A stretch of 57,378 nucleotides of DNA from Elusimicrobiota bacterium (GCA_027319565.1 DAHVNA010000006.1:1-57378), one strand, 5' to 3'. Positions 21,984-47,065 are shown, counted from the stretch's first letter. Notes: generated from the sequence alone by a model not told the origin. A program made the numbers and translations.

Positions 21984-22856
21984 ATGGAATTAATCTCGAC
22001 GGAATTTCGCTGCAACAACCGCTGCGTCTTTTGCGCTCAAGACGGTTTACCCGCCGAAAAATTCTCGAAAGACGAGCAGGATTTAATCGCAAAAGCAAAG
22101 GCCGCTTGTCAAAAAGATTCCACAATCGCCTTTGTGGGCGGAGAGCCCACTCTTCATGAAGGACTAATTCCGGCGGTCTCGGCCGCGAAAGCATTCGGAG
22201 CCGCTTACGTTCTCATTCAAACGAATGGCCGCCGCTTGGCCTATTCTTCTTTCACTCAAAATCTGAAAAATGCGGGCGCCGATGCCCTGGATATTTCCCT
22301 TCAAGGATCGACCGGGGATATGCATGATTATCACACCCAGACGCCCGGGAGTTGGGCGCAGACTATTTTGGGAATTAAGCACGCGCGCAAAGCCGGTTTT
22401 CGCGTCGGCATTTCAACCGTAATTACGCGCTCTAATTTTAGGCACTTAAGCGAAATCGCGCATTTGGTTCACCGCTTGGGAGCGGAAGCTTTCCATTTGA
22501 GCTTGGCCATGCCCTACGGTCGCGCCGGCAAATCGTGGGCAAGAGTGATCCCTTTAGCGGAAATGGCGCGGCCCCATCTGACAGAAGCCCTCAACCTTTC
22601 TAAATCCTTGGGGCTTAAAACCGAATTGGGACACGCCTTCTCTGAAACCACCAGCCCGCTGTTTGCGGGAATAGGCCCCTATCAGCGCGGGGAGTTAGAA
22701 ACAGCCTCCCACTCAAAAAAATCGGGCGACGCCTCCTACGCAAGACCCAAGCCGGGGCTTCGCGAACGCCGCGGACCGCCCAAAACTGGGACAAAACTCA
22801 AAGAATTATTTCCGGAAATTTTTACCGGCGCCGATATCCCCGGGGGAAAACCCTAA
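21984..22856 (+). CDS. Radical SAM protein (HxsC-like core, no C-terminal auxiliary Cys motif)
   Basis: CNNRCVFC, GGEPT, QTNGRRL and HD..T.TPGSW motifs. Confidence 0.85.
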   Translation: MELISTEFRCNNRCVFCAQDGLPAEKFSKDEQDLIAKAKAACQKDSTIAFVGGEPTLHEGLIPAVSAAKAFGAAYVLIQTNGRRLAYSSFTQNLKNAGADALDISLQGSTGDMHDYHTQTPGSWAQTILGIKHARKAGFRVGISTVITRSNFRHLSEIAHLVHRLGAEAFHLSLAMPYGRAGKSWARVIPLAEMARPHLTEALNLSKSLGLKTELGHAFSETTSPLFAGIGPYQRGELETASHSKKSGDASYARPKPGLRERRGPPKTGTKLKELFPEIFTGADIPGGKP

Positions 22857-25000
22857 TGGCCAATATCGGCTATATCCAGGTAGTCCGGCATTGTAATCAG
22901 TATTGCCGCTTTTGCTCAAACCCGGAAACGGAATATATGCTCGACGTTGAAACCGCCCAAAAGCAAATTGATGATTTTGTCAAGCGCGGCTATTTCGGAA
23001 TTATCCTCACCGGCGGCGAACCCAGTTTATCTCCCCATGTCCCGGCAATCACTCGCTATGCCATCCAAAAAGGCCTGCATGTTCGGATGATTACCAACGG
23101 TTCTAAAATCGCGGAGATGCCCATCGCCCGCTCTTTCGCCGAGGCCGGCCTTCACCATTATCATGTGTCTATTCATTCCAGCCGCGCTCAAGTCGAAAAC
23201 TTTTTAACCGGAGTCAAAAATTCTTTTGAGAAAGCTCTCCTGGCCCTGGAAAATCTCTCGATTTTAGCCAAGGATTTTCCCGTCGCGGTCAACATCAACA
23301 CCGTCATTAATTCCTACAACGCGGATCATCTCGATGAGACCGCGCGCTTTTTTGCCGAAAAATTTCCGGTCATCTCGCATTTTGTCTGGAATAATCTCGA
23401 TCCTTCGATGGGGCGAGCCGAGACCAATCGCGACACCGCGCCCCGGTTTCGGGATTTTGAGCTTTCTCTTTCAAAGGCGATGCGCTATCTGGATAAACAG
23501 GGGAAAACCTTCCGGGTTGAGCGCGTGCCCTTGTGTTTCATGACGGAGTTCGCGCATTGTTCGACTGAAACCCGGAAAATCGTCAAGGGAGAAGAACGCA
23601 TCGTCCACTTTTTGGATGAAAAAGGAACCGTACGCCAAACCGATTTTAAGCATCTTAAAAGCGCGGCCTGCCAATCTTGTTCCTTAGACGACATCTGCGC
23701 CGGCGCCTTCGACCTGGGAGATTGGTATGACCCGGAAGAACTCTCCCCGGTCTTTGTCCCCAAAGAACCTATTGTCCAAAAAATTCTTGCCGAAGAATCA
23801 CCCTCAACGGCCCCGGAAAGAGCGCCTCACCCGTTTTCAGAAAAGCCGCCGGAAAAACGGCACTGGGTCAGACTCACACGGGTCTGCAACGATCACTGCA
23901 GCTTTTGTCTCGACACTCCCGCCTGGAATGGAACGGCGATCCCCTGGAACGCGGTGGTCTCCGATCTCGAAAAAGGCCGCGCGCTCGGCATTAAACGCTT
24001 GGTCCTGAGCGGCGGAGAGCCCACCATCCACCCCGATTTCATCAAAATCGTCGCCAAATCAAGAGAAATGGGATACGAACATATTCAAACCGTCACCAAT
24101 GGGCGGCGAATGTGCTACCCGGATTTCATGGAGGGCGCGGTCAAAGCCGGGCTTAAGGAGGTCACTTTTTCTCTCCATGGGCACACCCCGGAAATTCACG
24201 ACCGCTTGACCGGATCTCCGGGCTCTTTTGTCCAAGGGCTTGTGGCTTTAAGGCGCGCGCTAAAAACCCCGAACCTGATTGTCAGCGTGGATGTCGTCAT
24301 CAACAAGCAAAATATCCGGCATTTAAGAGAAATTCTGGACTTTTTCATTCACGAAGGCGTGCGGGAATTCGATCTTTTGCAGGTCATTCCCTTTGGAAGC
24401 GCTTGGGAAAACAAAGAAGAGCTGTTCTATGATGTCAAAGCCGAATTGCCTCATCTTCACCGAGCTCTTGAGGTCCTCAAAAGAGGCGATGTCGTCTTGT
24501 GGACCAACCGCCTTTTGCCTCAGTATTTGGAAGGCTATGAGGATCTCATTCAGCCTCCCTCCAAGCTTCACGATGAAGCCTCAGGGCGTGGGGTTATATT
24601 CGACAAATTTCTCCATTACGGAATTAAGCCCGATTGCTGGGGGCGCTGCCCGCATTGTTTTTTGCAAAATATGTGCGCCGACATCGCCAAAATAAACGAA
24701 GAGAAAAAATTAAACGCCCATCCTCTTCCGGAATGCCTCAAAAACAATGCCGAGGCGCTCCATGATTTCGATAAAGCGGGTGCAGAAGAACTGAGTCATT
24801 CCCCCTCTCCGGATTTCAAAATGAAGGAATACGTCGAGTTTTATATTCGGCGGCGTTATTTTTCCAAGGGAAAATCTTGCCAAGAATGCCGTTTCAATTT
24901 ATCCTGCGACGGGGCCCCGATTCAATATATCCGCAAACACGGTTTTCCAAAGCCAACGCCTGAAATGCGGGTAAAATCTCCCGAAGCCATTCCTGTTTAA
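22856..25000 (+). CDS. Tandem double radical SAM protein
   Basis: Two CxxxCxxC motifs (CNQYCRFC, CNDHCSFC), each with its own GGEP/TNG and C-terminal Cys cluster, joined by a Pro-rich linker. Confidence 0.9.
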   Translation: MANIGYIQVVRHCNQYCRFCSNPETEYMLDVETAQKQIDDFVKRGYFGIILTGGEPSLSPHVPAITRYAIQKGLHVRMITNGSKIAEMPIARSFAEAGLHHYHVSIHSSRAQVENFLTGVKNSFEKALLALENLSILAKDFPVAVNINTVINSYNADHLDETARFFAEKFPVISHFVWNNLDPSMGRAETNRDTAPRFRDFELSLSKAMRYLDKQGKTFRVERVPLCFMTEFAHCSTETRKIVKGEERIVHFLDEKGTVRQTDFKHLKSAACQSCSLDDICAGAFDLGDWYDPEELSPVFVPKEPIVQKILAEESPSTAPERAPHPFSEKPPEKRHWVRLTRVCNDHCSFCLDTPAWNGTAIPWNAVVSDLEKGRALGIKRLVLSGGEPTIHPDFIKIVAKSREMGYEHIQTVTNGRRMCYPDFMEGAVKAGLKEVTFSLHGHTPEIHDRLTGSPGSFVQGLVALRRALKTPNLIVSVDVVINKQNIRHLREILDFFIHEGVREFDLLQVIPFGSAWENKEELFYDVKAELPHLHRALEVLKRGDVVLWTNRLLPQYLEGYEDLIQPPSKLHDEASGRGVIFDKFLHYGIKPDCWGRCPHCFLQNMCADIAKINEEKKLNAHPLPECLKNNAEALHDFDKAGAEELSHSPSPDFKMKEYVEFYIRRRYFSKGKSCQECRFNLSCDGAPIQYIRKHGFPKPTPEMRVKSPEAIPV

Positions 25001-26265
25001 TGAGCGCTTTTTCATCCGAAGATTTACTTCTCCCAATATCCGGACACCACACTCTTAAAAATTTAAAAGAGGCGTATCTAAAACAGCTTTTGCGCGAAAC
25101 TCTCGCGCTCGCAATTAAAAACCGGTCTTGGAACCTCACGCCGCCGCTTTATCCCTTGCTTGCCGGCGCTTTAAAGGCCTCCCCAAAATCTCTTCTTGAA
25201 ATTCTATCTTCCCCGGAAATTTCTCCCCTTGTTTGGTGTTACCAAAGAAAAAACGATTTCCCCGGCCTTGAAAAGAAAATTGAAGAAGCCGCAGAGGCCT
25301 TGCCGGGATCTCTTTTGCTTTCCTTGGCCGCCCACAAACTTTTGCCTCAGGGTGGAGCGAAATTTTTAGTCTCTTCCGAGACTGAAATCATATCTCACTC
25401 TCTCGGATTTTCGATGAAACTGGAAGAAGGACGCCTGGGCTGGAATTTCGGAGCGGGGAGCGTTTCGGCCTTAAAAAGCTCGGGACCGGAAGGACAGGTC
25501 AATCTCAGTTCGGAAACCCTTTTGGGACGGCGCCCAGCGGCGGCGGGAATTTCTTCGCAATTGTGCTACGTCTCCCTTAAACCGCCGCGCCCGATTAAAC
25601 TGGCGCTCAAAGATATCAACCCTATCGCCGACATCGAGGCTCACCCGGATAAAGCCGGAAACGCCTTGGACCTGGGCGGGCATTCCGAAGAAGACTGGAG
25701 AGCGTCCCTGGCCCAGTGTCTTGATTGGATTTTAGAATTGTGGCCCGAGCTTTTTGAAGAAATGGAGATACTGCTTAAGCAGATTGTCCCTGTCGGGTAT
25801 TCCGACACCCGGCATCTTTCCGCGTCGTACCGCGAGGCAATTGGAACTGTTTACATGACGCTTCACCCCCATCTTTTGACAATGACCGAAGCCCTGATTC
25901 ACGAGTTTCAGCACAATAAGATGAATTTGGCCTCCTATTTTGACGGTTTCCTTGAAAACGCTTTTGTTCCTTTATATAAGTCTCCGGTGCGCCCGGACCC
26001 GCGCCCCCTGTGGGGAGTTCTTCTGGCGGTTCACGCATTTTTGCCGGTGGCCGAGTTTTACCGCAAAATGCGCGCGGCCAATCACCCCGTGTCTCAAACT
26101 CCTGATTTTGAACGCCGGCTCAAGGAAATCGACGAAAAAAACCGCGAGGGAATGGAGACTTTGAGAGAACACGCCCGCTGGACGCCGGCCGGTCGCGCCT
26201 TGATGGAGGCGCTTGAAATCGTGGCCAGGCAGCATCAAGGAAATCTCATAAGACCGGGGTCTTGA
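25000..26265 (+). CDS. HExxH-motif peptide-modification enzyme (alphaKG-HExxH beta-hydroxylase-like)
   Basis: EALIHEFQHNK followed by SPVRPDPRPLWGVLLAVHAF, the family signature. Confidence 0.85.
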   Translation: MSAFSSEDLLLPISGHHTLKNLKEAYLKQLLRETLALAIKNRSWNLTPPLYPLLAGALKASPKSLLEILSSPEISPLVWCYQRKNDFPGLEKKIEEAAEALPGSLLLSLAAHKLLPQGGAKFLVSSETEIISHSLGFSMKLEEGRLGWNFGAGSVSALKSSGPEGQVNLSSETLLGRRPAAAGISSQLCYVSLKPPRPIKLALKDINPIADIEAHPDKAGNALDLGGHSEEDWRASLAQCLDWILELWPELFEEMEILLKQIVPVGYSDTRHLSASYREAIGTVYMTLHPHLLTMTEALIHEFQHNKMNLASYFDGFLENAFVPLYKSPVRPDPRPLWGVLLAVHAFLPVAEFYRKMRAANHPVSQTPDFERRLKEIDEKNREGMETLREHARWTPAGRALMEALEIVARQHQGNLIRPGS

Positions 26266-26290
26266 CGAAGTTGTGGTCTCCTGTTATCCT
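26262..26290 (+). promoter_or_regulatory. Sigma70-type promoter for the 26308 gene
   Basis: TTGACG-17 bp-TATCCT with an extended -10 TG, then an AAGAGG RBS before the ATG. Confidence 0.55.
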
Positions 26291-26307
26291 TAAAAAGAGG
26301 TTTTGTT

Positions 26308-27267
26308 ATGGAAGAGAAAGTTATTGAGATTCGCGTCCATGTTCCCAAGATTCATTTAAGTCCTAGGGTCTGGAAATGGGGCTTGGCTGGTCTTTTGGTT
26401 TTGGCTTTGGCTGAAAATCCCGCGACCGAGTCGGTGACTCTTTCTACCTATTACCCCGCTCCCGCCGGGGCTTATAATAACATGGTCACGATTGGGAACA
26501 CCTGGTTGGCGAGGGATCCGCAGTCAGGCGGGACTCCCAGTTTTGTCGAGATGGGAAGTAACCTAGGAGTTCCCCCTAATGTAAAGCTTGATGTCACCGG
26601 AGGTAACGTGGGGATTGGAAATGCTAATAATGGGGGGTATCCCCCGCAGCCTATAGATCCAACTTTTGGTGGTGTTGCGGGCTCAGGGAACGGAAATTTA
26701 CTTGGAATCGCTGCTCAAGATAACTCTACGGCTTTGGTTATCGGGAATACTTCCGGAGCCCCACGTTTTGCTTTGAACCCTCAAAGTAACGGTGGTTGGC
26801 AGATGTCGGATTATGGGTCGGGAGGTTGGCAATCAGGGCTCAGTGAATGGAACGGAAGTGTTACCACCCAGAAAGCTTTGTCCGTTGGCCCTTTTACGAC
26901 AAACCCTTCGGATCAGAGTTATATCCATGTTAATGCCAATAACGCTTGCTCGCCGATGGGACCGGGACAAGATAATGCAATGTGTCCAGGCGGCTGGTAT
27001 GCCACTTGGACACCGGGAATTTATGTTGAGACCCCCAATGGTTATAGTGGTCCTGGTTGGGCTCACGATCGCTATGCCTTGTATGCGCTGGATCCTGCAG
27101 ATGGCCAATGGCTCAATTTTAATATAGACTGTAGTGCTGGATGGGGCACGCTTCAAATTCAGGCTGCTTTTCCTCATTCGTCGCCGGGGTTAACAGAGGT
27201 TTGTGTTGCCGGAGAAGGTCTTTTTGGCGGGAATGGCAATAATCGCTGGTGGTGTTGTCCAAAATAG
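26308..27267 (+). CDS. Membrane-anchored/exported Gly-Asn-rich beta protein (adhesin/fibre-like, hypothetical)
   Basis: N-terminal TM, ESVTLSTYYPAP, LDVTGGNVGIG fibre-type motif, and a Cys-containing C-terminus ending WWCCPK. Confidence 0.65.
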   Translation: MEEKVIEIRVHVPKIHLSPRVWKWGLAGLLVLALAENPATESVTLSTYYPAPAGAYNNMVTIGNTWLARDPQSGGTPSFVEMGSNLGVPPNVKLDVTGGNVGIGNANNGGYPPQPIDPTFGGVAGSGNGNLLGIAAQDNSTALVIGNTSGAPRFALNPQSNGGWQMSDYGSGGWQSGLSEWNGSVTTQKALSVGPFTTNPSDQSYIHVNANNACSPMGPGQDNAMCPGGWYATWTPGIYVETPNGYSGPGWAHDRYALYALDPADGQWLNFNIDCSAGWGTLQIQAAFPHSSPGLTEVCVAGEGLFGGNGNNRWWCCPK

Positions 27268-27362
27268 TTTCCCCTCATGTTTTTATTTATTAGAACCACC
27301 AAACGACATCTTCGATCCTCCTGTTGCATTAGCTCCTTGAATTCACCCAATAATTTTTAATA

Positions 27363-27391
27363 TTGACTTCAGTAGTTTTCTTTTCTACCAT
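27363..27391 (+). promoter_or_regulatory. Sigma70-type promoter for the hxs core operon
   Basis: TTGACT-17 bp-TACCAT, then GAGG before ATG 27429. Confidence 0.6.
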
Positions 27392-27428
27392 ACATGGACG
27401 AGGCTAATAATGAAGAGGTAACGCTAAC

Positions 27429-27914
27429 ATGAATCACAATGAATTGGCTGTTGATGTCGATATCCGACTCTATGGTCTTGACGCCATTTATAAGGCGTGT
27501 TACCACTTCCTAGAGAGTTTTTATATTCGTTTGGAAGGTGATTCTCAAGGGATTGTAAAAATTTTTATTCGTCCCAAGTCGGAAACTTCGCATCATAAGG
27601 ATATCATTGGAGAGATTCAAAATGAGCTTTTGCATCAGTCGCTGCGCTATAAAATTCTAAACGAAACCCAAAAATTAAGAGAATATGTAATCACAAAAGC
27701 GCTGAGCTCTGCAGAAGGTGCTCCAGCCGAACAATCTGGGAATGCTCAGGGGGTGGTCGGTTCCCCAGTTCTAGACGCGGAATTAGAGAGAGAGATAGAA
27801 AAGCTTTTAGCTGAAGTCGAAAAAGTGGATTCCGCAAATGATCCTCTTAAAATCGGCACACCTTGGGAGGAAAACCATCCCTCCGTCAATTCCTCCGTCC
27901 CCAAGAACTCATGA
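27429..27914 (+). CDS. hxsD: His-Xaa-Ser system protein HxsD
   Basis: D..LY..DAIYKACY.F and NELLHQSLR.KI..ET..LRE motifs; position upstream of hxsB. Confidence 0.85.
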   Translation: MNHNELAVDVDIRLYGLDAIYKACYHFLESFYIRLEGDSQGIVKIFIRPKSETSHHKDIIGEIQNELLHQSLRYKILNETQKLREYVITKALSSAEGAPAEQSGNAQGVVGSPVLDAELEREIEKLLAEVEKVDSANDPLKIGTPWEENHPSVNSSVPKNS

Positions 27915-28111
27915 AAATAAAATTCCCAACCAATCTTTATTCAAGAAAGGCCGTAGAAGCCGCAGCGGTGGATTTTGCGGAATGGGCACGCTTTGAAATT
28001 ATCGAGAAAGATGGTGTTATTGGAGTAGAGGCCATTACTGAACCAGGCATGGAAATCAGTGAAAATTTTAAAGAAGAATTTTCGAATTATGTTCTTGGAC
28101 AAATGTCATGA
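27911..28111 (+). CDS. Short HxsD-like protein
   Basis: From ATG 27911 (ATGA overlap): LYSRKAVEAAAVDF...EEFSNYVL, which mirrors the HxsD pattern. Confidence 0.7.
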   Translation: MKIKFPTNLYSRKAVEAAAVDFAEWARFEIIEKDGVIGVEAITEPGMEISENFKEEFSNYVLGQMS

Positions 28112-29589
28112 TCACGCTTGAAGATATTAGAAAGGTTGATGAGAAAAAGGTTGGGGCGTTTTACTATCGCGTACTTAATGGGCGATATTTGATCACCAAC
28201 GATCAGGGACGTTATTTAGATTTATCGGAAGAGGATTTCAAGAGTTTTACCCGCGGGGAGGTCCTCCCGGAAAGCGCTCTTGGAATGGTTTTAAAGCAAA
28301 ATGGTTTTTTGCGCGAATGGGTTGATGTTGAGAGTCTTTCCCGAGATTGGTCAAAAAAGAATGCCTTTTTGAATTCTGGCACGGGGCTCCACATCATCGT
28401 GGTAACACTAAGGTGTAATCAGAAATGCGTCTATTGCCAGGTTAGCTCTGTGGGAATGAATGAAACTTCCACCGATATGACCGAAGCAACGGCTGAAAAG
28501 GTCCTTCAGCGTATATTTGAGAGCCCTAACAATGATATCACCATTGAGTTCCAGGGGGGCGAGCCATTAGTCAACTGGCCGATTATTCGTTACATAGTTA
28601 CTCGAGCTACTGAAATCAATAAAACAGCCCAGAAAAACCTCATCATCGGCATGGTTTCTAATCTTAGCTTGATGGATGAAGAAAAACTCCAGTTTCTTCT
28701 AGAGCATGACGTCACTTTTTGCACATCTTTGGACGGCCCAGCTTCCGTTCATGAGGAAAATCGCAAATGGTTAGGGGGGACCAGTCATGGTGACGCGGTT
28801 AAATGGTGGCGCGTTATCATGGAGAAGACTATAAATAAGCGTTACCGTATTGATGCTTTGACTACAATCACCAAACGCTCACTATCCTCTCCGAAAGAAA
28901 TTATCGATGAATATATTTCTCTTGGGGCACGCGGCATTTATCTTCGTTACTTGAGTCCGCTCGGATTTGCCCTTAAGACTTGGGAGAAAATTGGATACAC
29001 CTCCAATGAATACCTCGATTTCTATAGAACTGCTATGGACTATATTATCGATATAAATTTAAAAGATAGAAATAAACATTTTTTTGAAAACATGTCAAAG
29101 CAGTTTTTAACCAAGATTCTTTTAAACGAAGATCCTAATAATATGGATGTGCGCAACCCTTGTGGTGCAGGTATTGGTCAACTCGCGTACAACTTTGATG
29201 GATCAATCTATACTTGTGACGAGGGGAGAATGTTAAGCCGGATGAAAGATGAGTCTTTCAAGGTTGGGGATGTTAAGACAGGAACCTTATCGGATAATAT
29301 GCGCCACCCAGCGGTCCGTTCTCTCATCGTAGCATCACATCTTGAAGGGCAGCCCCAGTGTTCTTCGTGTGCTTATAAACCTTATGATGGAGTTTGTCCT
29401 ATTTACAACTATGTGACTGAAGGGGATATTATTAGCCGCATGCACTCGAATCAAAGATGTCATGTTCATATGGGCATCCTAGATTATTTGTTTTTGCGCC
29501 TGAGAGATCCGCAGGTAAAAGCCGTTTTTGAAGGATGGGTTACCTCTCCTGAGCGCCCGATTCGCGCCGATATTTTTCAAAGAAATTAA
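28108..29589 (+). CDS. hxsB: His-Xaa-Ser system radical SAM/SPASM maturase HxsB
   Basis: LHIIVVTLRCNQKCVYCQ, IEFQGGEPL, TSLDGP, PCGAGIGQLAYN.DG..YTCDEGRML and CxxCxYKPY motifs. Confidence 0.92.
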   Translation: MITLEDIRKVDEKKVGAFYYRVLNGRYLITNDQGRYLDLSEEDFKSFTRGEVLPESALGMVLKQNGFLREWVDVESLSRDWSKKNAFLNSGTGLHIIVVTLRCNQKCVYCQVSSVGMNETSTDMTEATAEKVLQRIFESPNNDITIEFQGGEPLVNWPIIRYIVTRATEINKTAQKNLIIGMVSNLSLMDEEKLQFLLEHDVTFCTSLDGPASVHEENRKWLGGTSHGDAVKWWRVIMEKTINKRYRIDALTTITKRSLSSPKEIIDEYISLGARGIYLRYLSPLGFALKTWEKIGYTSNEYLDFYRTAMDYIIDINLKDRNKHFFENMSKQFLTKILLNEDPNNMDVRNPCGAGIGQLAYNFDGSIYTCDEGRMLSRMKDESFKVGDVKTGTLSDNMRHPAVRSLIVASHLEGQPQCSSCAYKPYDGVCPIYNYVTEGDIISRMHSNQRCHVHMGILDYLFLRLRDPQVKAVFEGWVTSPERPIRADIFQRN

Positions 29590-29607
29590 TCTAATGGGTC
29601 AAGGAAA

Positions 29608-29943: not shown

Positions 29944-29947
29944 TTTT

Positions 29948-32438: not shown

Positions 32439-33952
32439 AATTTACTCGTGTTCCTTGGCCGGAATTTATATCTACTCAAGTCTGGGAACATCGATACTTC
32501 CCAATGGATGGCCCATCTCGTTATAGTCCCACGTATTTTTCCAGTATCCCTTTCTCCCGTGTTCGTGGAATGTGGGAAAAAACAGTATCCATGATTAAGG
32601 CCGGGAAAGCCCCCCCGCAGGTTGGTCTTTTTATTCATTGGCCCTTTTGCCCCAGTCAGTGCACATTTTGTTTCTGCAGTATGGCGGTTCCAAAAAATCA
32701 AGACGCAATGGCCATGATGCTTCAATCTATAATGAGCGAAATAGATGCGTTGGCCGATATTTTTGAGGATATTCCTCTTTCGAGTTTGTGGATGGCTGGA
32801 GGCACTCCAACATTCATGACGGATGGGATGTTGGACACACTTCTAAAACATATTTATCATCGTTTCCGCTTTGTTAATGGAGCGCAGATTTATTCAGAAA
32901 GTTCCCCTGCAACTCTCACATCTTCAAAATTAAAAATTCTGCTTCGACACGGGCTTAATAGGATTACCGTTGGGATCCAGACTATGGATTCTGGCCTAAT
33001 TCAGGTCCTTGATCGCCGCGGCCAAACAAAAGAAAAAATTAGGGAAGTCTTCGAAATGCTGAAGGCTTTAAAAGGTGTCATTAAAGACGTTGACGTGATG
33101 GTAGGATTGGAAAATCAAACCGCTCAAATTGTTGCCGATGATATGCGTGAAATTTTAATGTTTCGCCCCGACAATATCCATTTGTTTACTTTTGCCCTTA
33201 GTCCCCAGGTCCTTTTTGTGCAGCGTGGAGGAACGATGGATGAAAGGCAACGCCATCAACAAAAACTCCTTTTTGAATTTGCCAGCCGTATTTTAGAGCG
33301 TTCCGGATATCGGGAAAGTCATTATAATGAGAACTCTCTTCAGCCTTTCCCTTGGGATGAGAAACAAGACGGGGCTTTGCGGTTGGCTAGAGCTTCTGTG
33401 ATCGGGGTCGGACCGGGAGCCTATTCTCATGCTTTTGGATCGGCATGGTATTTCCACCCCCCATTCTCTGAAATGGGCTCTTCTTCTGGAATCCCTGAGG
33501 TTCGGGCCATGGAATCAGGAATTGAAGAAGAGATGCGAGGGTTTCTTATAAAACGCTTGATGCAAGATTCATATGTTTCGCTCAAAACTTTTAAATCTCT
33601 GTTTGGCATCGATCTCTCAAGTGTGAGCAATATCTCTCGGATTTTAGATGAATTAAAAAATGAGGGGCTAATTAAGATCGAGAATGAAAAAATATCGTGG
33701 ACGATTCTTAATTCTATTGATCGAATGATTCAAGTAAAGCGCCTCTATAGCCCGCAGATTGTCTCCGCGATATTGAAGGGGAAGGAAGAATTATTCCGTC
33801 GGTTTGTGTCTGCTTGGGCTGCGGGAGATGTTCGCTGGCGAGAAGCAATTAGATCAGAGGATAATCGAGAGCCTTGCCGTGTGTATTATGATACACGCAT
33901 CTGGGGTAAAGGAGCCTTTGCACATTCAAGGGGAGCGCTTTTTAGGAAATAA
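32426..33952 (+). CDS. HemN-like (class C-type) radical SAM protein
   Basis: LFIHWPFCPSQCTFC, GGTPT, ESSP and NRITVGIQT motifs. Confidence 0.88.
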   Translation: METMKFTRVPWPEFISTQVWEHRYFPMDGPSRYSPTYFSSIPFSRVRGMWEKTVSMIKAGKAPPQVGLFIHWPFCPSQCTFCFCSMAVPKNQDAMAMMLQSIMSEIDALADIFEDIPLSSLWMAGGTPTFMTDGMLDTLLKHIYHRFRFVNGAQIYSESSPATLTSSKLKILLRHGLNRITVGIQTMDSGLIQVLDRRGQTKEKIREVFEMLKALKGVIKDVDVMVGLENQTAQIVADDMREILMFRPDNIHLFTFALSPQVLFVQRGGTMDERQRHQQKLLFEFASRILERSGYRESHYNENSLQPFPWDEKQDGALRLARASVIGVGPGAYSHAFGSAWYFHPPFSEMGSSSGIPEVRAMESGIEEEMRGFLIKRLMQDSYVSLKTFKSLFGIDLSSVSNISRILDELKNEGLIKIENEKISWTILNSIDRMIQVKRLYSPQIVSAILKGKEELFRRFVSAWAAGDVRWREAIRSEDNREPCRVYYDTRIWGKGAFAHSRGALFRK

Positions 33953-33953
33953 T

Positions 33954-34904
33954 ATGCCGCTTCTAGGGCGCAATCCGGACAATCACCAAGAAACTCGGTG
34001 TCTAGAGATCACGCTTTCTTATACTTGTGATGTTGATTGTGTCTTTTGTAGTCATGCCCAAATAATGAGGGCATTTTCCGCGTGGCCGCTCAAATTGCGA
34101 GAAATGCAGGCTGTGCTTTTCCGAAAAAAGCAAGAGGGGTTTAGTCATGTAACATTTACTGGCGGGGAGCCGACCCTTTATCCACGTTTTAATATTATTT
34201 TGGCTATTGCGAAGAGACTGGGTTATCAAACGCGCGTGATCAGTAATGGAGCAGGTTTTTTTCAATACTCCCAGATGGCATCGATAAGCCCGTTTATAGA
34301 TGAGTTATGCTTTTCTTTTCATGGAGGAACTGCCGAAATTCACGACAAAGTCACCCGCTCGCCCGGAAGTTTTGAAAGAATAATAAAGGCGTTACACATG
34401 ATAGAAGATAATAAACGGATTAAGGTTTCGGTCAATATGGTCGCGACGACCTTAAACCTTGATTCTTTGGTTACTGCCGCAGGGTTAGTGCGCGGACATA
34501 AGAGAATTCATGAAATTTGGTTATCGAACCTTGTTCCCATTGGACAGGGATTGCTTAAATACGATGAATTATCCGTTAAAAGTGCGGTGATTATGGAACG
34601 GGTCCCCTCTATTGTGGGCGCGGCCGTGCCTGTTCCAATGCGTTTTTATGGGTTCCCGCTTTGTATTTTGGGCAAATTACGAAGTTCTGCTGTTATTCGT
34701 CAGCATCCTGCTGTAAGCGTGTTTCGTGTGCGTGGGAAAGATGGGAAACCTTCCATAAGAAGTCAAGATAGCCATTTTTCCGATCCACCAAGGATTTTGA
34801 CCCAAAAGTGCGAAGGATGTTTAGACCAAACAGTTTGTGGAGGGCCTTGGGAGCGATACGTGAAGAAATATGGAGATGGAGAGTTGATTCCACGACTACA
34901 ATGA
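33954..34904 (+). CDS. HxsC-like radical SAM protein
   Basis: CDVDCVFC, TGGEPT, GFPLC and C-terminal CEGC.....CGG. ATG 33954 follows AGGA. Confidence 0.85.
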   Translation: MPLLGRNPDNHQETRCLEITLSYTCDVDCVFCSHAQIMRAFSAWPLKLREMQAVLFRKKQEGFSHVTFTGGEPTLYPRFNIILAIAKRLGYQTRVISNGAGFFQYSQMASISPFIDELCFSFHGGTAEIHDKVTRSPGSFERIIKALHMIEDNKRIKVSVNMVATTLNLDSLVTAAGLVRGHKRIHEIWLSNLVPIGQGLLKYDELSVKSAVIMERVPSIVGAAVPVPMRFYGFPLCILGKLRSSAVIRQHPAVSVFRVRGKDGKPSIRSQDSHFSDPPRILTQKCEGCLDQTVCGGPWERYVKKYGDGELIPRLQ

Positions 34905-35917
34905 GTCAAGATATTTTCGTTTCACCTCAATGGACCCGCAATGCCGTTGTCGAATCTGGATCTCGTCTAGAGTTTCACATCATTTACCGCTGTGTAGATC
35001 AATGTATTTTTTGCAGTGAAGAAACTAGTATGAAGCGGCTCAAAGGAATTATCGTTCCTAGAGAAGATGTTCTATCGATGCTTGAGAAGAAAAGGAAAGA
35101 AGGGTTTGAGCATGTAACCCTTACTGGCGGTGAACCAACGTTTTATCCCAAGTTTTGGGAAATTGCAGCCTTCGCGAAAAATCTGGGGTATAGAGTTTTT
35201 GTGATATCAAATGGTTGGGGGTTGTCTCAACCGGAGTTCGCTGCAAAACTCTTACCCTATATTGATGAACTTTGCCTTTCAATCCATGGCCCCAACAAGG
35301 AAGTTCACGATAAATTAACGCGCACGGAGGGGAGTTTTGAAAAGCTTATGGGGGCGTTTAAGAATGTTGAAGCGCATCCTGCCCGCCATTGGGTCCAGGT
35401 CAATCATGTTGTCACACAACATAATGTAAAGTATCTTCCTCGAACTCTGGAGCTATTTAGTCGTAATAAAAAGTTGTGCCAGTTCCTGGTGTCAAACGTG
35501 ACACCGCATGGAGGCGCAAAGCCCAATTATAGAGATCTTGCCGTGCCACACAAGGCGATTACCTCCCAGATTCCGACCTTGGCCAAAATAGCTCGTATCA
35601 GGCGTGTTTCTCTTAGGTTCTATGGAATTCCGGTATGTCTGCTCGGTCCCTATTGGCGCTATTCCAATGACCTCTTTTTTAGCCCGCGTACGACCATCGC
35701 CAAGACTACCCAAGATAATGGATCGGTTGATTGGCTGTTTGAGCGCGCTCCTTATTCCTATCGGGAAAAATTTTTTCCAAAAGTTTGCGATTCTTGCGTA
35801 TTGAAAGGGCGCTGTGGTGGTATTTATTTCCCCTACACGAAAATTTTTGGCAATGAAAACCTTAAGCCATTTACGGTCAAATCATTGCGTGAGCTGTCGG
35901 ATATGTCCAATTCATGA
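34901..35917 (+). CDS. HxsC-like radical SAM protein
   Basis: CVDQCIFCSE, TGGEPT, GIPVC and CDSC.....CGG; ATGA overlap at 34901. Confidence 0.85.
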   Translation: MSQDIFVSPQWTRNAVVESGSRLEFHIIYRCVDQCIFCSEETSMKRLKGIIVPREDVLSMLEKKRKEGFEHVTLTGGEPTFYPKFWEIAAFAKNLGYRVFVISNGWGLSQPEFAAKLLPYIDELCLSIHGPNKEVHDKLTRTEGSFEKLMGAFKNVEAHPARHWVQVNHVVTQHNVKYLPRTLELFSRNKKLCQFLVSNVTPHGGAKPNYRDLAVPHKAITSQIPTLAKIARIRRVSLRFYGIPVCLLGPYWRYSNDLFFSPRTTIAKTTQDNGSVDWLFERAPYSYREKFFPKVCDSCVLKGRCGGIYFPYTKIFGNENLKPFTVKSLRELSDMSNS

Positions 35918-35928
35918 ATTAATATTCA

Positions 35929-36918
35929 ATGGTTGATTCTGTGGTTACGAGAGAAGAACGTCTGAAAAACGTCGAAATTAATCCCGGCCGCTTGTGCAAT
36001 AATAAATGTATTTTTTGCATGAGTGGAGAGGAGCGCGACGAGCACAATCCGTGGGCTTCTTTAGGTCGCGTAAAAAACGAACTAGAATATCATTACCAGC
36101 AGGGCGCGCGTTCTGTGGGATTCTTGGGGGGAGAACCTACCGCCTATCCGCATATTATTGAAAGCATTTCTTATGCAAGAGAGATCGGATATCAGCGAAT
36201 TGCGTTATGTACGAACGCAATGAGACTCAGCCAAGATGACTTTCTTGATGAAGTCTTGACTGCGGGGTTAACCAGGGTCACGGTGTCAGTGCATAGCCAT
36301 ATCGCAGAAATTGAAGAAAAGCTGGTAGGGATTCCTCAAGTTTTGGCGATGAAACTTCAAGCAATCGATAACCTGATTGCAGCAAAAAAATCGGGACGAT
36401 TTGCTGACAATATCTCTCTAAACCCTGTCCTAAACCGTCTTAATGCTTTTCAAATGGAAAATTTTATTCAATTCTTCATTGAACGTGGCATTGATGATGT
36501 TCGTTTTAATTTTATTTGGCCGCAATCGCGCGTCCTTAAAGACACATCTGTCGTCCCTCGGTTTCGGGACGTGATGCCTTATATTTTGAATACAATTCTT
36601 ATTAATGAACGCAACTGGAAAATTAATATTAGTTTTGGAGCTGTTCCTTTTTGCGTAGTGCCTGGTTTTTTTCGCGATCACAAAGAGCTTCTTTTTAAAT
36701 ACTTTTCAGAAGAAGGAAACGATAACCCAACTGAAGTTGGGTTTATTAACCCCGATTCCGAGGGGGATGTGCATCGTTTTGCGCTCAAGGCACGTACGAG
36801 ATACGATCATCGAATGAAGATTCCCGCCTGCCGCAGTTGCCGCTTCGATTCGCACTGCTTGGGGGTCTGGCGAAGCTATGTAGAATTATATGGGGCAGAG
36901 GAATTTTGGGCGGTTTAA
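35929..36918 (+). CDS. HxsC-like radical SAM protein
   Basis: CNNKCIFC, LGGEPT, VPFC and CRSC.....CLG motifs. Confidence 0.87.
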   Translation: MVDSVVTREERLKNVEINPGRLCNNKCIFCMSGEERDEHNPWASLGRVKNELEYHYQQGARSVGFLGGEPTAYPHIIESISYAREIGYQRIALCTNAMRLSQDDFLDEVLTAGLTRVTVSVHSHIAEIEEKLVGIPQVLAMKLQAIDNLIAAKKSGRFADNISLNPVLNRLNAFQMENFIQFFIERGIDDVRFNFIWPQSRVLKDTSVVPRFRDVMPYILNTILINERNWKINISFGAVPFCVVPGFFRDHKELLFKYFSEEGNDNPTEVGFINPDSEGDVHRFALKARTRYDHRMKIPACRSCRFDSHCLGVWRSYVELYGAEEFWAV

Positions 36919-36958
36919 TATAAGGGCACGGATGAAATAATATGGCTATTTCTATTGA

Positions 36959-37900
36959 ATGTCTTGTAGAGCCATGAATTTATACGACACGCGTCTTTGT
37001 TTGCTAGTTTCGCGACAATGCAATATTCGTTGCTCTTTTTGTCCGGTCGAGTTTACTGGCGGTAATATGTTGCTGGATGTCGCTCGTCGAGCTGTTGACC
37101 AATATATTGAACATCTTCCTTCTTCTACTTTCCCAAGAATTAAATTTTTCGGAGGAGAGCCATTGTTAAACTGGCCGGTCATATATGCCCTTGTTGAACA
37201 TTATCATCGCATCAATAAAAACATTTCATTTCAGATATCGACGAATGGAATGTTTCTTGATAGCGAAAAGATTACCTACTTGAAAAGGCGTCCTGAGGTG
37301 GAAGTGACTTTAAGTTTCCGTTCTAAAAACGGAGCAGAACTGCCAAACTCGTGGTTTACAATGGTGTTAACACAGAATCAATCAGCTGAAGAGGTTATTT
37401 CCCGGATGAGGATTCTTTTAAGAGATGGTTATCGCCAATTTAATTTCTTGCCAGCTTATTTTTCCTTATGGACAAGCGAGGAACTTAAAGGATTAGAACG
37501 CGTACTACACTCTCTTCGGAAACTTTTTTTTGGACTCTGGGACCAAGGGGTTCCATGTCGAATCAGGAATTCAGAAATTTTGAGCCCGATTCCACTTTAT
37601 AATGCGGCTCTGACTGTAGATACAGATGGCAGCGTTTACTCCTCAAGTCTGATCGAAACGCAGGGGATTGAGCCGTATCGGAATTTTTTAAAAATTGGTT
37701 CAGTTGAATCCTGGCCATCATTGAGCGAACCGCGTCGTGACGGCAGAATTTTACGTGAGGTTCTAAGGCGTTGGGCGGGACCTAAACGCTGGGCTTCAAC
37801 TGAAGCCGTCGATGAGCTTTTAAATTATTTTGTACAAGACATTTTCCAATACAAACTATCCAATACGGTTGAATCAAGGGTGCGGGAATGCCTTTCTTAG
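36959..37900 (+). CDS. Radical SAM protein (anSME/SPASM-like core without intact SPASM Cys)
   Basis: CNIRCSFC, IKFFGGEPLL and STNG motifs; VDTDGSVYSS where SPASM proteins usually have DG.VYPC. Confidence 0.82.
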   Translation: MSCRAMNLYDTRLCLLVSRQCNIRCSFCPVEFTGGNMLLDVARRAVDQYIEHLPSSTFPRIKFFGGEPLLNWPVIYALVEHYHRINKNISFQISTNGMFLDSEKITYLKRRPEVEVTLSFRSKNGAELPNSWFTMVLTQNQSAEEVISRMRILLRDGYRQFNFLPAYFSLWTSEELKGLERVLHSLRKLFFGLWDQGVPCRIRNSEILSPIPLYNAALTVDTDGSVYSSSLIETQGIEPYRNFLKIGSVESWPSLSEPRRDGRILREVLRRWAGPKRWASTEAVDELLNYFVQDIFQYKLSNTVESRVRECLS

Positions 37901-38883
37901 AACACTCGTTCCCTGGAGGCAAGGGCCCTGGAACTCATGTTAAGCGATTAGAATTCCATATGTCCTATACCTGCAATCAAGATTGCATTTTTTGTTCCGA
38001 GAGCGTCCGCATGCGACAGTATCAAAATCATCCATTATCTTATAAAGAGATGGTTCAGACTATAACGCGAAAACGTCTGGAGGGTTGTGAGCATATAACG
38101 TTTGTGGGTGGCGAACCTACCATTCATCCGGATTTCTTAAAGCTTTTGTCGGCCGCTAAGCGCCTCGAATATAAAACACTTCTAATTACCAACGGCGTTC
38201 GGCTCTCTGAGTTTGATTTTTCCGCAAAAGCCTTGCCGCTTTTAGATGAGATCGTATTTTCAATCCACGGGCCCAACCCAAAAGTTCATGACGGCTTGGG
38301 AAAATCAAAAGGAAGTTTTAACAGGTTAATGACGGCTCTTGATCTTATTGAGCGCTCAAATTCCAAGCCATTTGTCTTAACCAATACCGTTGTAACCAAG
38401 GAAAACTTTGAATTCTTGGAAGAGACAATCGATCTCTTGTCATCCAGATCAGCCGTGAGGCATCTTCTGATCTCAAATCTTGCTCCCGATGGGAACGCTC
38501 TTACTTTTTATCTTGATCAGGTTGTTTCTATTAAAGAATTAAGCTCCTTGGCGCCGCGACTGGTTTCCATCGCAGAAAACCGGAAGAAAATTATTCGATT
38601 TTTTGGAATGCCCCTTTGCGCCTTGGGGGAGGTTTGGAAATCTTCAAATGATCTTTATTGGGACAGCCGGACCAATGTTGAGCGCACGACTTCTCATGGG
38701 AAGGTTGAGCTCGAGGATACTTGGAACTATACCCCTCAACGAATGCGGTTTTTCCCTGAGATTTGCGCTTCTTGTCCTGCGCGCGGGAAAGAGTGTTGGG
38801 GAATTTTTAGAGTCTATCATAAGCATTTTGGGGAAACGGAGCTAAGTCCTCTTAAAGCACCTTTGGAATATGCAGTTAAATAA
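37888..38883 (+). CDS. HxsC-like radical SAM protein
   Basis: CNQDCIFCSE, GGEPT, GMPLC and CASC......CWG; close paralogue of 34901 (RLEFH, SNDL). Confidence 0.87.
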   Translation: MPFLEHSFPGGKGPGTHVKRLEFHMSYTCNQDCIFCSESVRMRQYQNHPLSYKEMVQTITRKRLEGCEHITFVGGEPTIHPDFLKLLSAAKRLEYKTLLITNGVRLSEFDFSAKALPLLDEIVFSIHGPNPKVHDGLGKSKGSFNRLMTALDLIERSNSKPFVLTNTVVTKENFEFLEETIDLLSSRSAVRHLLISNLAPDGNALTFYLDQVVSIKELSSLAPRLVSIAENRKKIIRFFGMPLCALGEVWKSSNDLYWDSRTNVERTTSHGKVELEDTWNYTPQRMRFFPEICASCPARGKECWGIFRVYHKHFGETELSPLKAPLEYAVK

Positions 38884-40354
38884 CGTGCCGCCCTTACGTT
38901 GGGCTGAGTTTATTTCGAGTGTTTATGGGAGCCGTTATTACCCGCCTTTAGATGGCTCATTTCGGACTCCTAAATATTTTAATCGTCTTGATTTTAAAGA
39001 TGTCAGAGAGAATTGGAACAAGAGTTTCAGCATGATGAAGAATGGGGATATCCCTTCGGAGATAGGGATGTATGTTCATTGGCCGTTTTGCCCGAGTCAA
39101 TGCACATTTTGTCGTTGCAATATGACAGTCCCTAAAAACAATCAATCCATGAAATCGACTTTAGAAGCACTTAAAAACGAAATGAGCATGTTCCAAGAGG
39201 TATTTAAGGACACGGAGTTCTCGAGCTTCTATATGGGAGGGGGCACTCCGACATTTATGACAAACGAGATGTTAGATGATTTCTTCTCCCATTTACATCG
39301 ATGTTTTAGGTTTGCAAAAGGAGCTCAGATATATATGGAAAGCTCTCCGGCGACCTTAACGGAATCAAAGATCCGGCTTCTTCTTAGGCATGGCCTTAAT
39401 CGCATAACAATTGGCGTTCAAACTTTCAATGATCATCTGCTTTCTAATTTGGATCGATTTGGGCAAACTCGAAGTTCTGTGCTCGAGCTATTTAATTTAC
39501 TTTCTCAATTCCCGAATTTAGTCTTGGACCTAGATTTGATGGTTGGTTTAGAGGAGCAAAATCCCGCTATTTTTTTTAGTGATTTACTACAAGTCATAAA
39601 GCTAAGGCCAAAGTGCCTTCATCTCTATCCATTTGACGATGCCCTTCCTACTATTTTTAGACAAACAGGGAAAAAAATTGATTCAAGGCAGCGCCGCACA
39701 ATCGACCAGATGACGCAAGCCGCCGACCGACTAATACACAAATCTGGGTATATGCGCTGGAGTGACGGGTGGGAGGATGTCAATTTGTATCCCTGGGAAA
39801 CTCGTCAGGAAACGGCTCTGCGCCGTTTTCGTGTTTCCATGCTGGGTATTGGGTATGGCGCTTTGTCACATTCCTTTGCTTCTTCTTGGTATTGTCATCC
39901 AGGGATTTCACCTGGAGGAGTCAAGAATGCTGATGTTCCTGATTTCTTGTCCATAGATTTCAACACTGAAGAAGAAATGAGGGGCTATTTAATTGAATCT
40001 CTCGCAAGAAGTGGAAAATCTTCCCGCCTGGTTTTTAAAAAGATATTTGGGCGCGATATTATGGATATGGATTTTCTTGAGGGCCCTATTTCACGACTTG
40101 TCGATGAAGGACTTCTGACAGTTGATTCTAAATTTCTTGCTTGGTTAGGCAGAGACATCATGCAGATGGTAATTCAATTAAAGCGCTTTTATAGCCCTAA
40201 AATAATTAAAACTATACTTCAATCCCATCTGGAGGGATTAAGGCGTTTTTCGAAGCAGATGATCGATGGCGATGATTTAAGAAAAACCGTAATGATGGAG
40301 CAAGAAGGTCGCAGAGTTCTTGCTTACTATGATTCTCGCGCCTGGAAAAATTGA
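38870..40354 (+). CDS. HemN-like (class C-type) radical SAM protein
   Basis: MYVHWPFCPSQCTFC, GGGTPT, ESSP and NRITIGVQT; close paralogue of 32426. Confidence 0.88.
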   Translation: MQLNNVPPLRWAEFISSVYGSRYYPPLDGSFRTPKYFNRLDFKDVRENWNKSFSMMKNGDIPSEIGMYVHWPFCPSQCTFCRCNMTVPKNNQSMKSTLEALKNEMSMFQEVFKDTEFSSFYMGGGTPTFMTNEMLDDFFSHLHRCFRFAKGAQIYMESSPATLTESKIRLLLRHGLNRITIGVQTFNDHLLSNLDRFGQTRSSVLELFNLLSQFPNLVLDLDLMVGLEEQNPAIFFSDLLQVIKLRPKCLHLYPFDDALPTIFRQTGKKIDSRQRRTIDQMTQAADRLIHKSGYMRWSDGWEDVNLYPWETRQETALRRFRVSMLGIGYGALSHSFASSWYCHPGISPGGVKNADVPDFLSIDFNTEEEMRGYLIESLARSGKSSRLVFKKIFGRDIMDMDFLEGPISRLVDEGLLTVDSKFLAWLGRDIMQMVIQLKRFYSPKIIKTILQSHLEGLRRFSKQMIDGDDLRKTVMMEQEGRRVLAYYDSRAWKN

Positions 40355-41493
40355 TTCATCTTACACTGATTTTTTTTATAATCATCGGGCTCCTTGCCTC
40401 GATTAGCGATATAAAAACTCGCAGAATCGGCAATTGGTTGATTTTTTCTTCCGGGTTTTTTATCGTTTGTGAATATGTTTTGGTGTTTTGGAAGGTCATT
40501 CCTTGGTCACAGCCGTATTCCAGGATGGAATTCTACCGGATGGCCTTATTGCATTTGGCGCTTTGTAGTTTGTCGGCCCTGGTGCTGTGGTATTACCGCA
40601 TTTGGCCGGCTGGCGACGCGAAATTTTTCGTCATAATGGCGTTGTTTTTGATCACTATTCGTCCCGATATCCCCGGTTTTCCTAATTGGCTGTTTTTTAA
40701 ACTTTTGACAAATATATTCATTCCGGCCTCCATCTTTATCATAGCGATCCATGTCGCGGAGTGGATGTCCTCTATCAAAGGAGTCATTCCTCGCCTCACG
40801 TTACATTCGGTTTATGCTGGAGGATCGCATATTCTCCGTCAAAAAATAGAAGAATTCCAATGGTCTAATATTCAATATGGGGTTTTCCTGGCGTGGAATG
40901 TTATTGCATTCGTAGTTCTTTCTCAATATATTTTTGTGTTGGCTCCGACTAATTTTCAAGGTCTTTTGCGGCTGGTATTTTATTTCCTTTTGTTTATGGC
41001 CTGGAGCAAAGCTCCTCAGTTTTTAAAGCAATCATTTTTATCTATTGGGATGCTGTTATTGATCGTGGTACTAGGTAAAATATTCCATCAAAATATCCTG
41101 AGTTCTATTGGAATTGCGGCGGCATCCTCCCTCGTATTTTTCATTCTGTTCTCATTAATACGTTTTGCCTTGAATTTATTGGATTTAGGCCAAATCGTTT
41201 CTTGCCCTATTGGGCAGTTGAAACAAGGGGATGTGTTGAGTCTCGATTCATGGAAATATGTGGTTCAGGCTTGCAAAGAGGTGGACCCTGGATTTCTGTC
41301 AACTCGTTACGCGGATGGCCTTTCGAGTGAAGAGGTTCGGTTTATTCAGAAATGTTGTCCATTGGAATTAGACAAAGTCTTGCAAGTTTTTCAGACTCGC
41401 CCCTTTGCTTTTTGGATTTTTTTGGGTACAGTTTTGACTCTCTGCACTCGCGGCACGGTATTGCGCCACATCTTATCCATTATGGGACGCTAA
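40351..41493 (+). CDS. A24 prepilin-peptidase-like intramembrane aspartyl protease
   Basis: First Asp in SDIKTRRIGN, GxGD-type site WPAGDAK, multiple TM helices and C-terminal PFAFWIFLG. Confidence 0.75.
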   Translation: MIHLTLIFFIIIGLLASISDIKTRRIGNWLIFSSGFFIVCEYVLVFWKVIPWSQPYSRMEFYRMALLHLALCSLSALVLWYYRIWPAGDAKFFVIMALFLITIRPDIPGFPNWLFFKLLTNIFIPASIFIIAIHVAEWMSSIKGVIPRLTLHSVYAGGSHILRQKIEEFQWSNIQYGVFLAWNVIAFVVLSQYIFVLAPTNFQGLLRLVFYFLLFMAWSKAPQFLKQSFLSIGMLLLIVVLGKIFHQNILSSIGIAAASSLVFFILFSLIRFALNLLDLGQIVSCPIGQLKQGDVLSLDSWKYVVQACKEVDPGFLSTRYADGLSSEEVRFIQKCCPLELDKVLQVFQTRPFAFWIFLGTVLTLCTRGTVLRHILSIMGR

Positions 41494-41504
41494 ACGCAGG
41501 TTTT

Positions 41505-45037: not shown

Positions 45038-45070
45038 CTCTTAGTTATAGCAAAATGCCAAGAAATTGGG

Positions 45071-47032: not shown

Positions 47033-47065
47033 GAGGGTATGGTATCACTCGCAATTTTTTCCCGC

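Follow-up and report, generated by a model that had tools for sequence, protein, structure and literature searches.

The 57,378-nucleotide stretch from an Elusimicrobiota bacterium analysed here (GCA_027319565.1, DAHVNA010000006.1:1-57378; below, the window) carries at 21984-41493 a locus built around a single His-x-Ser (HxS) repeat peptide. As judged by protein family models, this locus is an HxsA4-type relative of the HXS anti-phage system and not a member of it; it is real, and it represents an undescribed HxsA4-type variant, not a unique locus. We tentatively read it as a peptide-maturation system in two parts, which resembles HXS, has a larger and variable tool kit and may yield a barrier in the cell envelope. 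That the HxsA4 peptide is the substrate of the core enzymes is very likely, and most of the extra enzymes probably act on it as well, while a role in envelope defence is put forward with reservation.

Open reading frame (ORF) calls give 18 co-oriented genes, g01 to g18, all on the plus strand. Eleven of them have a radical S-adenosylmethionine (SAM) fold and start at 21984, 22856 (two domains), 28108, 30957, 32426, 33954, 34901, 35929, 36959, 37888 and 38870. The count of 11 genes with 12 domains, 11 of which have an intact CxxxCxxC motif, is the same as in an earlier note on this DNA (the original prediction), and the coupled gene junctions listed there were likewise read in the sequence, with TAATG at 22856 and 25000 and ATGA at 27911, 28108 and 34901. 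At 27911, 29948, 33954 and 34901 the start codon judged likely was used instead of the longest-ORF start.

The precursor HxsA4 (29608..29943, +; 111 residues) passes the NCBIfam model NF038313 with a score of 87.9 against a cut-off of 55. It is arranged as a basic leader ending in FLTSEEA, a hydrophobic helix, an ALA|Q site and a core of 53 residues, which contains 13 His, 14 Ser and zero charged residues and ends in HGAW; the gene encodes 11 contiguous H-x-S triplets. Among the 39,489 six-frame ORFs of the 2.03-Mb assembly it is the only one with at least three contiguous H-x-S triplets, and a profile made from the leader alone matched no other sequence there (E 1e-25, the next match at 0.83). 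Hence, the one precursor seen originally is the sole one across the whole assembly, and the extra substrates that had been considered elsewhere in the genome were not found by repeat pattern, leader profile or His-richness. Three further core genes pass their models: HxsB (28108..29589, +; TIGR03978, 492.3 against 370), a radical SAM/SPASM maturase whose closest relative in named records is from Elusimicrobia (79% identity), HxsD (27429..27914, +; TIGR03976, 61.6 against 50) and a 66-residue HxsD-like protein (27911..28111, +; NF038315, 47.9 against 41). HxsD is a small alpha/beta sandwich with a helical tail and probably serves as a scaffold or chaperone; its structural model (predicted local distance difference test score 84) had only generic fold matches. 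HxsD was also considered as a leader-binding recognition element for peptides that are made on the ribosome and modified after translation (RiPPs); the matches of its model were generic small alpha/beta sandwiches only (best Z 7.1), with no Foldseek match at E <= 0.001. A complex prediction of HxsB with precursor residues 8-90 scored 0.01 and was used neither way.

The last gene, g18 (40351..41493, +), encodes a FlaK-like (A24/GxGD) membrane aspartic protease with D20 and D89 (in WPAGD). The membrane protease of the original prediction is supported by motif and fold, whereas the family match to PF01478 stayed below the cut-off (19.5 against 26.5 bits). Across 21 homologues D89 is invariant and D20 is present in at least 90%. 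Foldseek returned no match for the g18 model and its profile no real match among PDB sequences; a wider structure search then gave the archaeal preflagellin peptidase FlaK (3S0X) as the best match (Z 11.5, root-mean-square deviation 3.3, 162 residues aligned; next match 6.8). Both catalytic aspartates and the FlaK fold, the two marks of the A24/GxGD type, are thus present. In contrast to FlaK, g18 is larger (380 residues) and lies in a peptide-maturation operon, and its presumed substrate has no hydrophobic helix directly after the cut. The leader motif FLxSEE[G/A] is nearly invariant in the precursor alignment (n=34), and of 53 matches, 47 have G and 6 have A as the presumed cut residue. We take this motif to resemble pilin leaders, a likeness for which the family scans gave no support. 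The identity of g18 to copies in congeners (L090, L092, L111, L115) is only 32-37%, compared with 73-75% for its neighbour g16; g09 and g10 are likewise near 30%.

To place the locus among its relatives, 61 genomes were compared, among them its own; 36 of these have an HxsB and 34 an HxsA4 that passes the respective cut-off. The protease family of g18 is present in 39, namely all 36 HxsB-positive genomes and three with partial or split clusters (G004, G005 and G024), and in none of the other 22. HxsB thus strictly co-occurs with the FlaK-like protease; as the genomes are kin, these counts do not amount to an independent statistical test. The family of the N-terminal domain of g02 was found in 26 of the 61 genomes, 24 of which have the protease. 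Hxs loci of other genera also contain each of the radical SAM families present in the window, and the gene order is largely common to G001, G002 and G004. The far more elaborate His-x-Ser pathway proposed originally is supported. The extra radical SAM families are tied to HxS precursors in many genomes; the lack of such linkage elsewhere, which had been named as a ground for giving up the proposal, was checked for and not observed.

The locus had also been regarded as exceptional, and here the comparison leads to the opposite view: it is a small member of a lineage-wide family. Regions in other genomes hold 16 (G001, intact), 22 (G042) and 31 radical SAM domains (G048:C16, within 80 kb), counts that may take in unrelated radical SAM genes. 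The region G048:C16:1-80000 (L057-L060) is the largest array seen; it carries nitrogenase-like genes and is bounded on both sides by HxS-repeat ORFs. Records labelled Omnitrophota, Parcubacteria, Moranbacteria and Woesearchaeota likewise combine the same leader with radical SAM arrays, and the number of repeats ranges from about 7 to over 30 between genomes. Two tandem HxsA4-type precursors with Cys at the core start were observed at L026:11424-12670, and a record labelled Myxococcota (L200) has an HxsA4-type leader with 17 repeats and no radical SAM gene within 10 kb, possibly an orphan precursor. Ten matches on viral contigs were set aside as matches to the repeat only, as they have no radical SAM gene, HxsB, HxsD or leader.

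The extra enzymes fall into few groups. In a tree of 103 radical SAM domains (FastTree, midpoint root, local support only), seven domains of the window group with four proteins that pass the HxsC cut-off (support 98), g15 groups with HxsB (support 99), and g11 and g17 group with HemN-like proteins. Based on these groupings, the array is mostly a radiation of the HxsB/HxsC pair, complemented by recruited HemN-like enzymes. The first HxsC-clade gene, g01 (21984..22856, +; 290 residues), best matches HxsC4/HxsC below cut-off; it has an intact CxxxCxxC and no C-terminal motif of auxiliary-cluster cysteines and is 83-85% identical to its counterparts in G003 and G005. Family search and cysteine mapping show g02 (22856..25000, +) to consist of two fused HxsC-clade domains, each with a C-terminal CxxCx5C, whose counterparts are two separate genes in the Hxs clusters of other genera. 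The other HxsC-clade enzymes are g12 (33954..34904, +), g13 (34901..35917, +) and g16 (37888..38883, +), which share one family, and g14 (35929..36918, +), for which HxsC4 is the best model (142 against 500 bits). HxsC4 is the best or second-best model for every HxsC-clade gene. By its place in the tree g15 (36959..37900, +) is a short HxsB-clade enzyme, and it lacks a SPASM domain. The HemN fold with CxxxCxxC and GGTPT is found in g11 (32426..33952, +; family search, alignment and cysteine map) and g17 (38870..40354, +; PDB matches HemN 1olt and NocN 9p2u), both HemN-like enzymes of the class C type, and not in g10; none of the HemN-like genes passes the HemN, HemW or HutW cut-offs. The HExxH enzyme of the original prediction, g03 (25000..26265, +), was recovered with TIGR04267 (99.4 bits against 40). 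It is a probable beta-hydroxylase dependent on alpha-ketoglutarate; HEFQH and a downstream His (AVHAF) are conserved in the alignment, and the PDB matches are 22nu and ChlH (8s5f).

One domain departs from this pattern. Alignment identifies g10 (30957..32438, +) as a HemN-fold protein that has lost all three 4Fe-4S cluster cysteines, while its ORF is intact and its position conserved. A quick tree with long branches joins it to the cluster-less copies that occupy its position in G001 and G002 (SH-aLRT 99), a 75%-identical relative likewise lacks the motif, and the ratio of nonsynonymous to synonymous substitution rates (dN/dS) of g10 against congeners is 0.23. As the cluster-less copies group together and the close relative also lacks the motif, g10 looks like a maintained pseudo-enzyme. 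Such a gene, as well as the sharp shift in GC content at ~27 kb, would also be expected if the array were a mis-assembly or a set of decaying duplicates. This explanation is largely refuted and hardly credible any more. A single contig of run X1 covers 25897-41600 with zero differences, including the joint between trio and island described below; since X1 may be the source of the window, this match is an assembly check only. The gene order shared with G001, G002 and G004 and the mutual identity of only 20-41% among the paralogous radical SAM genes also speak against an artefact. All cluster genes tested have dN/dS values of 0.03-0.23 (27 pairs, 3 of which were saturated and set aside); they are under purifying selection, the cluster-less g10 included.

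The co-orientation of the genes in the ca. 19.5-kb locus was confirmed, its description as one unit was not. It consists of a native trio, g01-g03 (21984-26265, +; two radical SAM genes and the HExxH gene, with the native GC content of 0.51), and of genes belonging to a variable block of ~21.5 kb (26266..47774), which was delimited by blastn of empty sites, GC and tetranucleotide ranks and gene maps. The trio genes are 83-94% identical to those of G003 and G005, where the HExxH gene is directly followed by the gene found here at 47776; the block is hence absent at this site. Between 27429 and 41493 the GC content drops to 0.42-0.44, and none of the 363 five-kb windows into which the assembly was divided is lower (mean 0.496, standard deviation 0.017). 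The variable block occupies this very joint in the more distant G001 too; gain in the window and loss or transfer in G003/G005 are therefore equally likely. In G005, HxsD and the cluster tail lie at the ends of two other contigs, which indicates that trio and cluster are unlinked there. Both g02 families are missing from the island and are yet found inside the Hxs clusters of many other genera. The run depth is raised 1.5-2x, with many variants, over 21900-26500 and not over the island, as would be the case if co-occurring relatives had just the trio in common, although contig depth is a weak measure.

The operon also differs from that of its congeners by a missing nitrogenase-like triad. The triad comprises two nitrogenase component-1-like genes and one NifH-like gene, which in G001, G002 and G004 lie 3' of the g13 orthologue and 5' of the g14 orthologue, in G004 with one further HemN-like gene; in the window this site is an 11-bp gap (35918..35928). 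G005 has the NifH-like gene and part of one component-1-like subunit at a contig end. No NifH-, NifD- or NifK-like gene was found in the window or in the assembly (91.65% complete). Of the 61 genomes compared, 18 have the component-1-like gene, and each of these 18 belongs to the 39 in which the Hxs protease is present. The NifH-like proteins of the congeners stay below the NifH, CfbC, BchL and BchX cut-offs, which would fit nitrogenase-like proteins of Group VI, and are 41% identical to the copy in L031. According to the available part of 10.1101/765248, up to 13 radical SAM genes, some of them with HemN_C or B12 domains, lie beside Group VI systems, and one of the genomes named there (L031) encodes, at ~5 kb from its nitrogenase-like genes, HxsB and an HxsA4 precursor. 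The substrate proposed in the same part of that paper is a tetrapyrrole, and a peptide is not mentioned; the window, by contrast, has no triad. According to the accessible text of a 2026 review (PMC13474568), Group VI has no characterised member and gene context has been of little help.

In the HXS system of E. coli, as described in the available part of Li 2026 (PMC13128918), HxsB, HxsC and HxsD mature an exported HxS-repeat protein, phage DNA entry is blocked in the periplasm, and a +8 Da change on SHRSS is given as a partial product. The original statement that no defined final product is known for the classical Hxs system is outdated by this publication. Its survey, in the same part, counts more than 99.8% four-gene systems and places 99.7% in Pseudomonadota, and its main text, as far as available, makes no mention of HxsA4, Elusimicrobia or a peptidase. 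Like the D-B-C-A cassette of HXS (TIGR03976-03979), the locus has equivalogs of HxsB and HxsD as well as enzymes of the HxsC clade, and in both the substrate is an H-x-S repeat protein that carries a signal-like segment and is processed at its N-terminus, in the locus presumably. It differs in that the precursor has only 111 residues with an uncharged (HGS)n core, no peptidoglycan-binding domain and no SHRSS, and in that 18 genes, 11 of them with a radical SAM fold, replace the four-gene cassette; there are 12 radical SAM-fold domains compared with two, and HemN-like, HExxH and protease genes in addition. The family searches suggested originally were successful for TIGR03976 (HxsD) and TIGR03978 (HxsB), while all genes remained below the cut-offs of TIGR03977 (HxsC) and TIGR03979 (classical HxsA, best score 21.1 against 121.65). 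Because no gene passes HxsC or classical HxsA, the locus is not counted as an HXS member. The NCBIfam models for HxsA4 and HxsD-like proteins, which precursor and HxsD-like gene pass, and for HxsC4, whose cut-off no gene reaches, name parts only. Triceptide clusters (ChlB/ChlH and the His-type synthases HtkB and HaaB) likewise combine an aromatic-x-x repeat with a SPASM enzyme and an HExxH enzyme; however, HxsB lies outside the cyclophane synthase families, and the locus has many more enzymes, a membrane protease and a signal-like leader. No published description of the expanded architecture was found, most subscription journals and the supplement of 10.1101/765248 being outside the scope of the search.

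Several results weigh against the envelope-barrier interpretation or against parts of it. The peptidoglycan-binding domain (searched with Pfam) and Lys or Arg in the core (0 residues), both tied to defence in the available part of PMC13128918, are absent; because this domain and the basic repeats are needed in E. coli, the role is the weakest step of the scheme. For 12 domains, the near-uniform (HGS)n core presents few sites that differ from one another. Among the 21 recurrent cargo families scanned, PADLOC matched one, a cysteine desulfurase, and found no recurrent defence-system neighbours. The best scores for HxsC (TIGR03977; 159.6, for the two-domain g02, against 267.9) and HxsC4 (NF038332; 175 against 500 bits, a narrow 'exception' model) are below cut-off, and HxsB is far below the cut-offs of the cyclophane synthases (TIGR04261, 52.9/310; NF041707, 54.1/445; NF041718, 42.9/425). 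Pilin-family matches were found for 0 of 34 precursors in Pfam and NCBIfam. An HxsC-clade gene also exists away from any His-repeat peptide (G000:C32:11026-14049; L226:6026-9019, -), in a run of three radical SAM genes with an AhbD-like enzyme and with homologues in four congeners. Finally, the trio is intact in G003 (93% complete; dN/dS 0.08-0.18), where no HxsA4, HxsB, HxsD or protease was found, and is present in G031 (86% complete), where the same Hxs genes were not found; this counts against the trio as a mere Hxs accessory.

The last two points would be explained if only HxsB and HxsD acted on the peptide, while the trio, the HemN-like enzymes and the nitrogenase-like cargo made a separate small molecule or cofactor, for example a tetrapyrrole. 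In agreement with this, the trio adjoins genes for a cobalamin adenosyltransferase, hemB and hemL, the HemN fold is present, an HxsC-clade paralogue lies beside the AhbD-like gene, and a tetrapyrrole was proposed for Group VI in the available part of 10.1101/765248. On the other hand, the trio adjoins Hxs clusters in G001 and G018, and its HExxH gene alone adjoins one in G060, which amounts to three genera, and the trio families lie inside Hxs operons, beside the protease, in many other genera. The restriction of the nitrogenase-like gene to genomes with the Hxs protease and the descent of the enzymes from the HxsB/HxsC pair also argue for the peptide as target, and we consider a separate cofactor unlikely.

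A different reading keeps the maturation and replaces the envelope barrier by a released natural product, an antagonist or a signal. The small core without anchoring domain and the natural-product-type cargo of related loci would suit such a product. Tailoring chemistry recurs in these loci, which speaks for the proposed maturation system as well: 10 genomes have a flavin halogenase, 10 a cysteine desulfurase, 6 a B12-dependent radical SAM protein, 5 a U32 protein and 4 a carbamoyltransferase; the scan covered 21 of 30 recurrent neighbour clusters. Among these scanned neighbours no dedicated exporter was recognised, repeat numbers that vary from ~7 to >30 are easier to reconcile with a multivalent polymer than with a small molecule of defined structure, and the characterised relative, HXS, acts in the periplasm according to the accessible part of its description. 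A released product hence appears improbable. The 13 His in the core of 53 residues, together with a multiheme cytochrome and an AhpD-like gene in the same block, could instead point to a poly-histidine metal binder for Ni, Cu or Zn in surface uptake or detoxification. No metal transporter or regulator was recognised among the scanned recurrent neighbours, cross-linking or methylation of the imidazoles would tend to lower binding, and the system spans Elusimicrobia, Omnitrophota, Patescibacteria and archaea, so that we regard metal binding as quite improbable.

For the HXS-like maturation system proposed above, the following sequence of steps can be envisaged. HxsB, with HxsD and the HxsD-like protein as scaffold, would bind the precursor and attack the repeated His-x-Ser motifs. 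Given that the repeat is spaced aromatic-x-x, as in triceptide substrates, cross-links from His to Ser (i, i+2) would be the most likely products. Further oxidations or one-carbon changes at different positions may then be introduced by g15 and the seven HxsC-clade domains; two HxsC-clade families, missing from the island and retained within the cluster in many other genera, would come from the native trio. Class C enzymes add one-carbon units to sp2 carbon according to the available part of PMC10114718; the intact HemN-like enzymes g11 and g17 could transfer such SAM-derived units to an sp2 carbon, plausibly of the imidazole, and the cluster-less g10 may act as partner or scaffold. ChlH-type HExxH enzymes hydroxylate His or Asp after cyclophane formation, as stated in the accessible text of PMC12636437, and g03 would accordingly be a candidate for beta-hydroxylation of the cross-linked peptide. 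The membrane protease g18 is predicted to cut after the FLxSEE[G/A] leader, which would leave the signal-like helix and the AxA site for export. The mature, rigid poly-His peptide may form a barrier in the cell envelope, most likely against the entry of phage DNA, and swappable cargo enzymes would diversify the peptide chemistry. In its full form, with all of the enzymes acting on this single peptide, the scheme is something we infer.

On a wider scale, HxsA4 loci may constitute a combinatorial peptide-modification platform for strain-specific envelope armour, with the Group VI reductases as optional peptide-tailoring and not tetrapyrrole enzymes, a suggestion that we offer with more doubt than confidence. 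Such a platform would combine a fixed core of precursor, HxsB, HxsD and FlaK-like protease with exchangeable enzymes acting on a simple (HGS)n polymer, and its hosts would be Elusimicrobia, Omnitrophota, Patescibacteria and small-genome archaea. The FlaK-like enzyme would then be the first leader protease of prepilin-peptidase type found in print for a RiPP pathway. As a natural version with a single precursor and no triad, the window would provide a ready control for finding the substrate of the Group VI reductases: since the triad lies within the operon of congeners, occurs only with the Hxs protease and is missing here, comparing both versions is a direct test. Approximately 1% of the 2-Mb genome (~20 kb) is devoted to one core of 53 residues, and more than half of the sampled relatives carry the system, which points to a major, undescribed function in uncultured lineages. 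A further point of interest is the new radical SAM chemistry that the locus offers for histidine repeats, still to be worked out in the E. coli system as well. The window's own contributions are an organisation in two parts, for which natural empty sites exist, a conserved HemN-fold pseudo-enzyme and a single-precursor version of the operon that is free of the triad.

Two genes of the operon encode exported or secreted proteins, and neither g04 nor g09 has a family in Pfam, NCBIfam or Atlas (all feature scores <0.9). The exported protein g04 (26308..27267, +) has a conserved N-terminal TLSTYYPAP domain and a variable C-terminus and often lies just upstream of hxsD-hxsB; it is co-oriented and within 9 kb 5' of HxsB in 16 of the 26 loci with sufficient room, the remaining 17 of 43 loci having been excluded for too little room. 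As the family is present in 56 of the 61 genomes, g04 was ruled out as an Hxs-specific gene. A second exported protein of this family is encoded at G000:C15:43038-43838, unlinked to the Hxs locus. The Cys-rich secreted protein g09 (29948..30979, +; 343 residues) has a signal-peptide-like N-terminus and lies 3' of the precursor in five loci. In the congener G002, a UDP-galactopyranose mutase gene and a MiaB-type radical SAM gene are inserted in the middle of the Hxs operon (L052:9648-11952, G002:C36).

The right arm of the variable block (41505..47699) encodes a TPR protein, an RnfD/NqrB-like membrane protein, an FG-GAP/ASPIC-UnbV protein and the multiheme cytochrome, all on the minus strand, and the AhpD-like protein on the plus strand; these genes are 52-81% identical to those of G001 and are absent at the site in G003 and G005. 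Predicted promoters (32 compared with 27.8 +/- 5.3) and terminators (20 compared with 25.3 +/- 6.0) are at chance level in the window; the predicted sites at 26262 and 27363 sit in the two intergenic gaps and were not counted as evidence. PADLOC gave only generic matches to viperin/radical SAM, kinase, ATPase, nuclease and protease families in the window. At 3937-5109 (-), a protein of the class A beta-lactamase family (PF13354, 197 bits) is encoded beside a ClpB/C-type ATPase and a Ser/Thr kinase.

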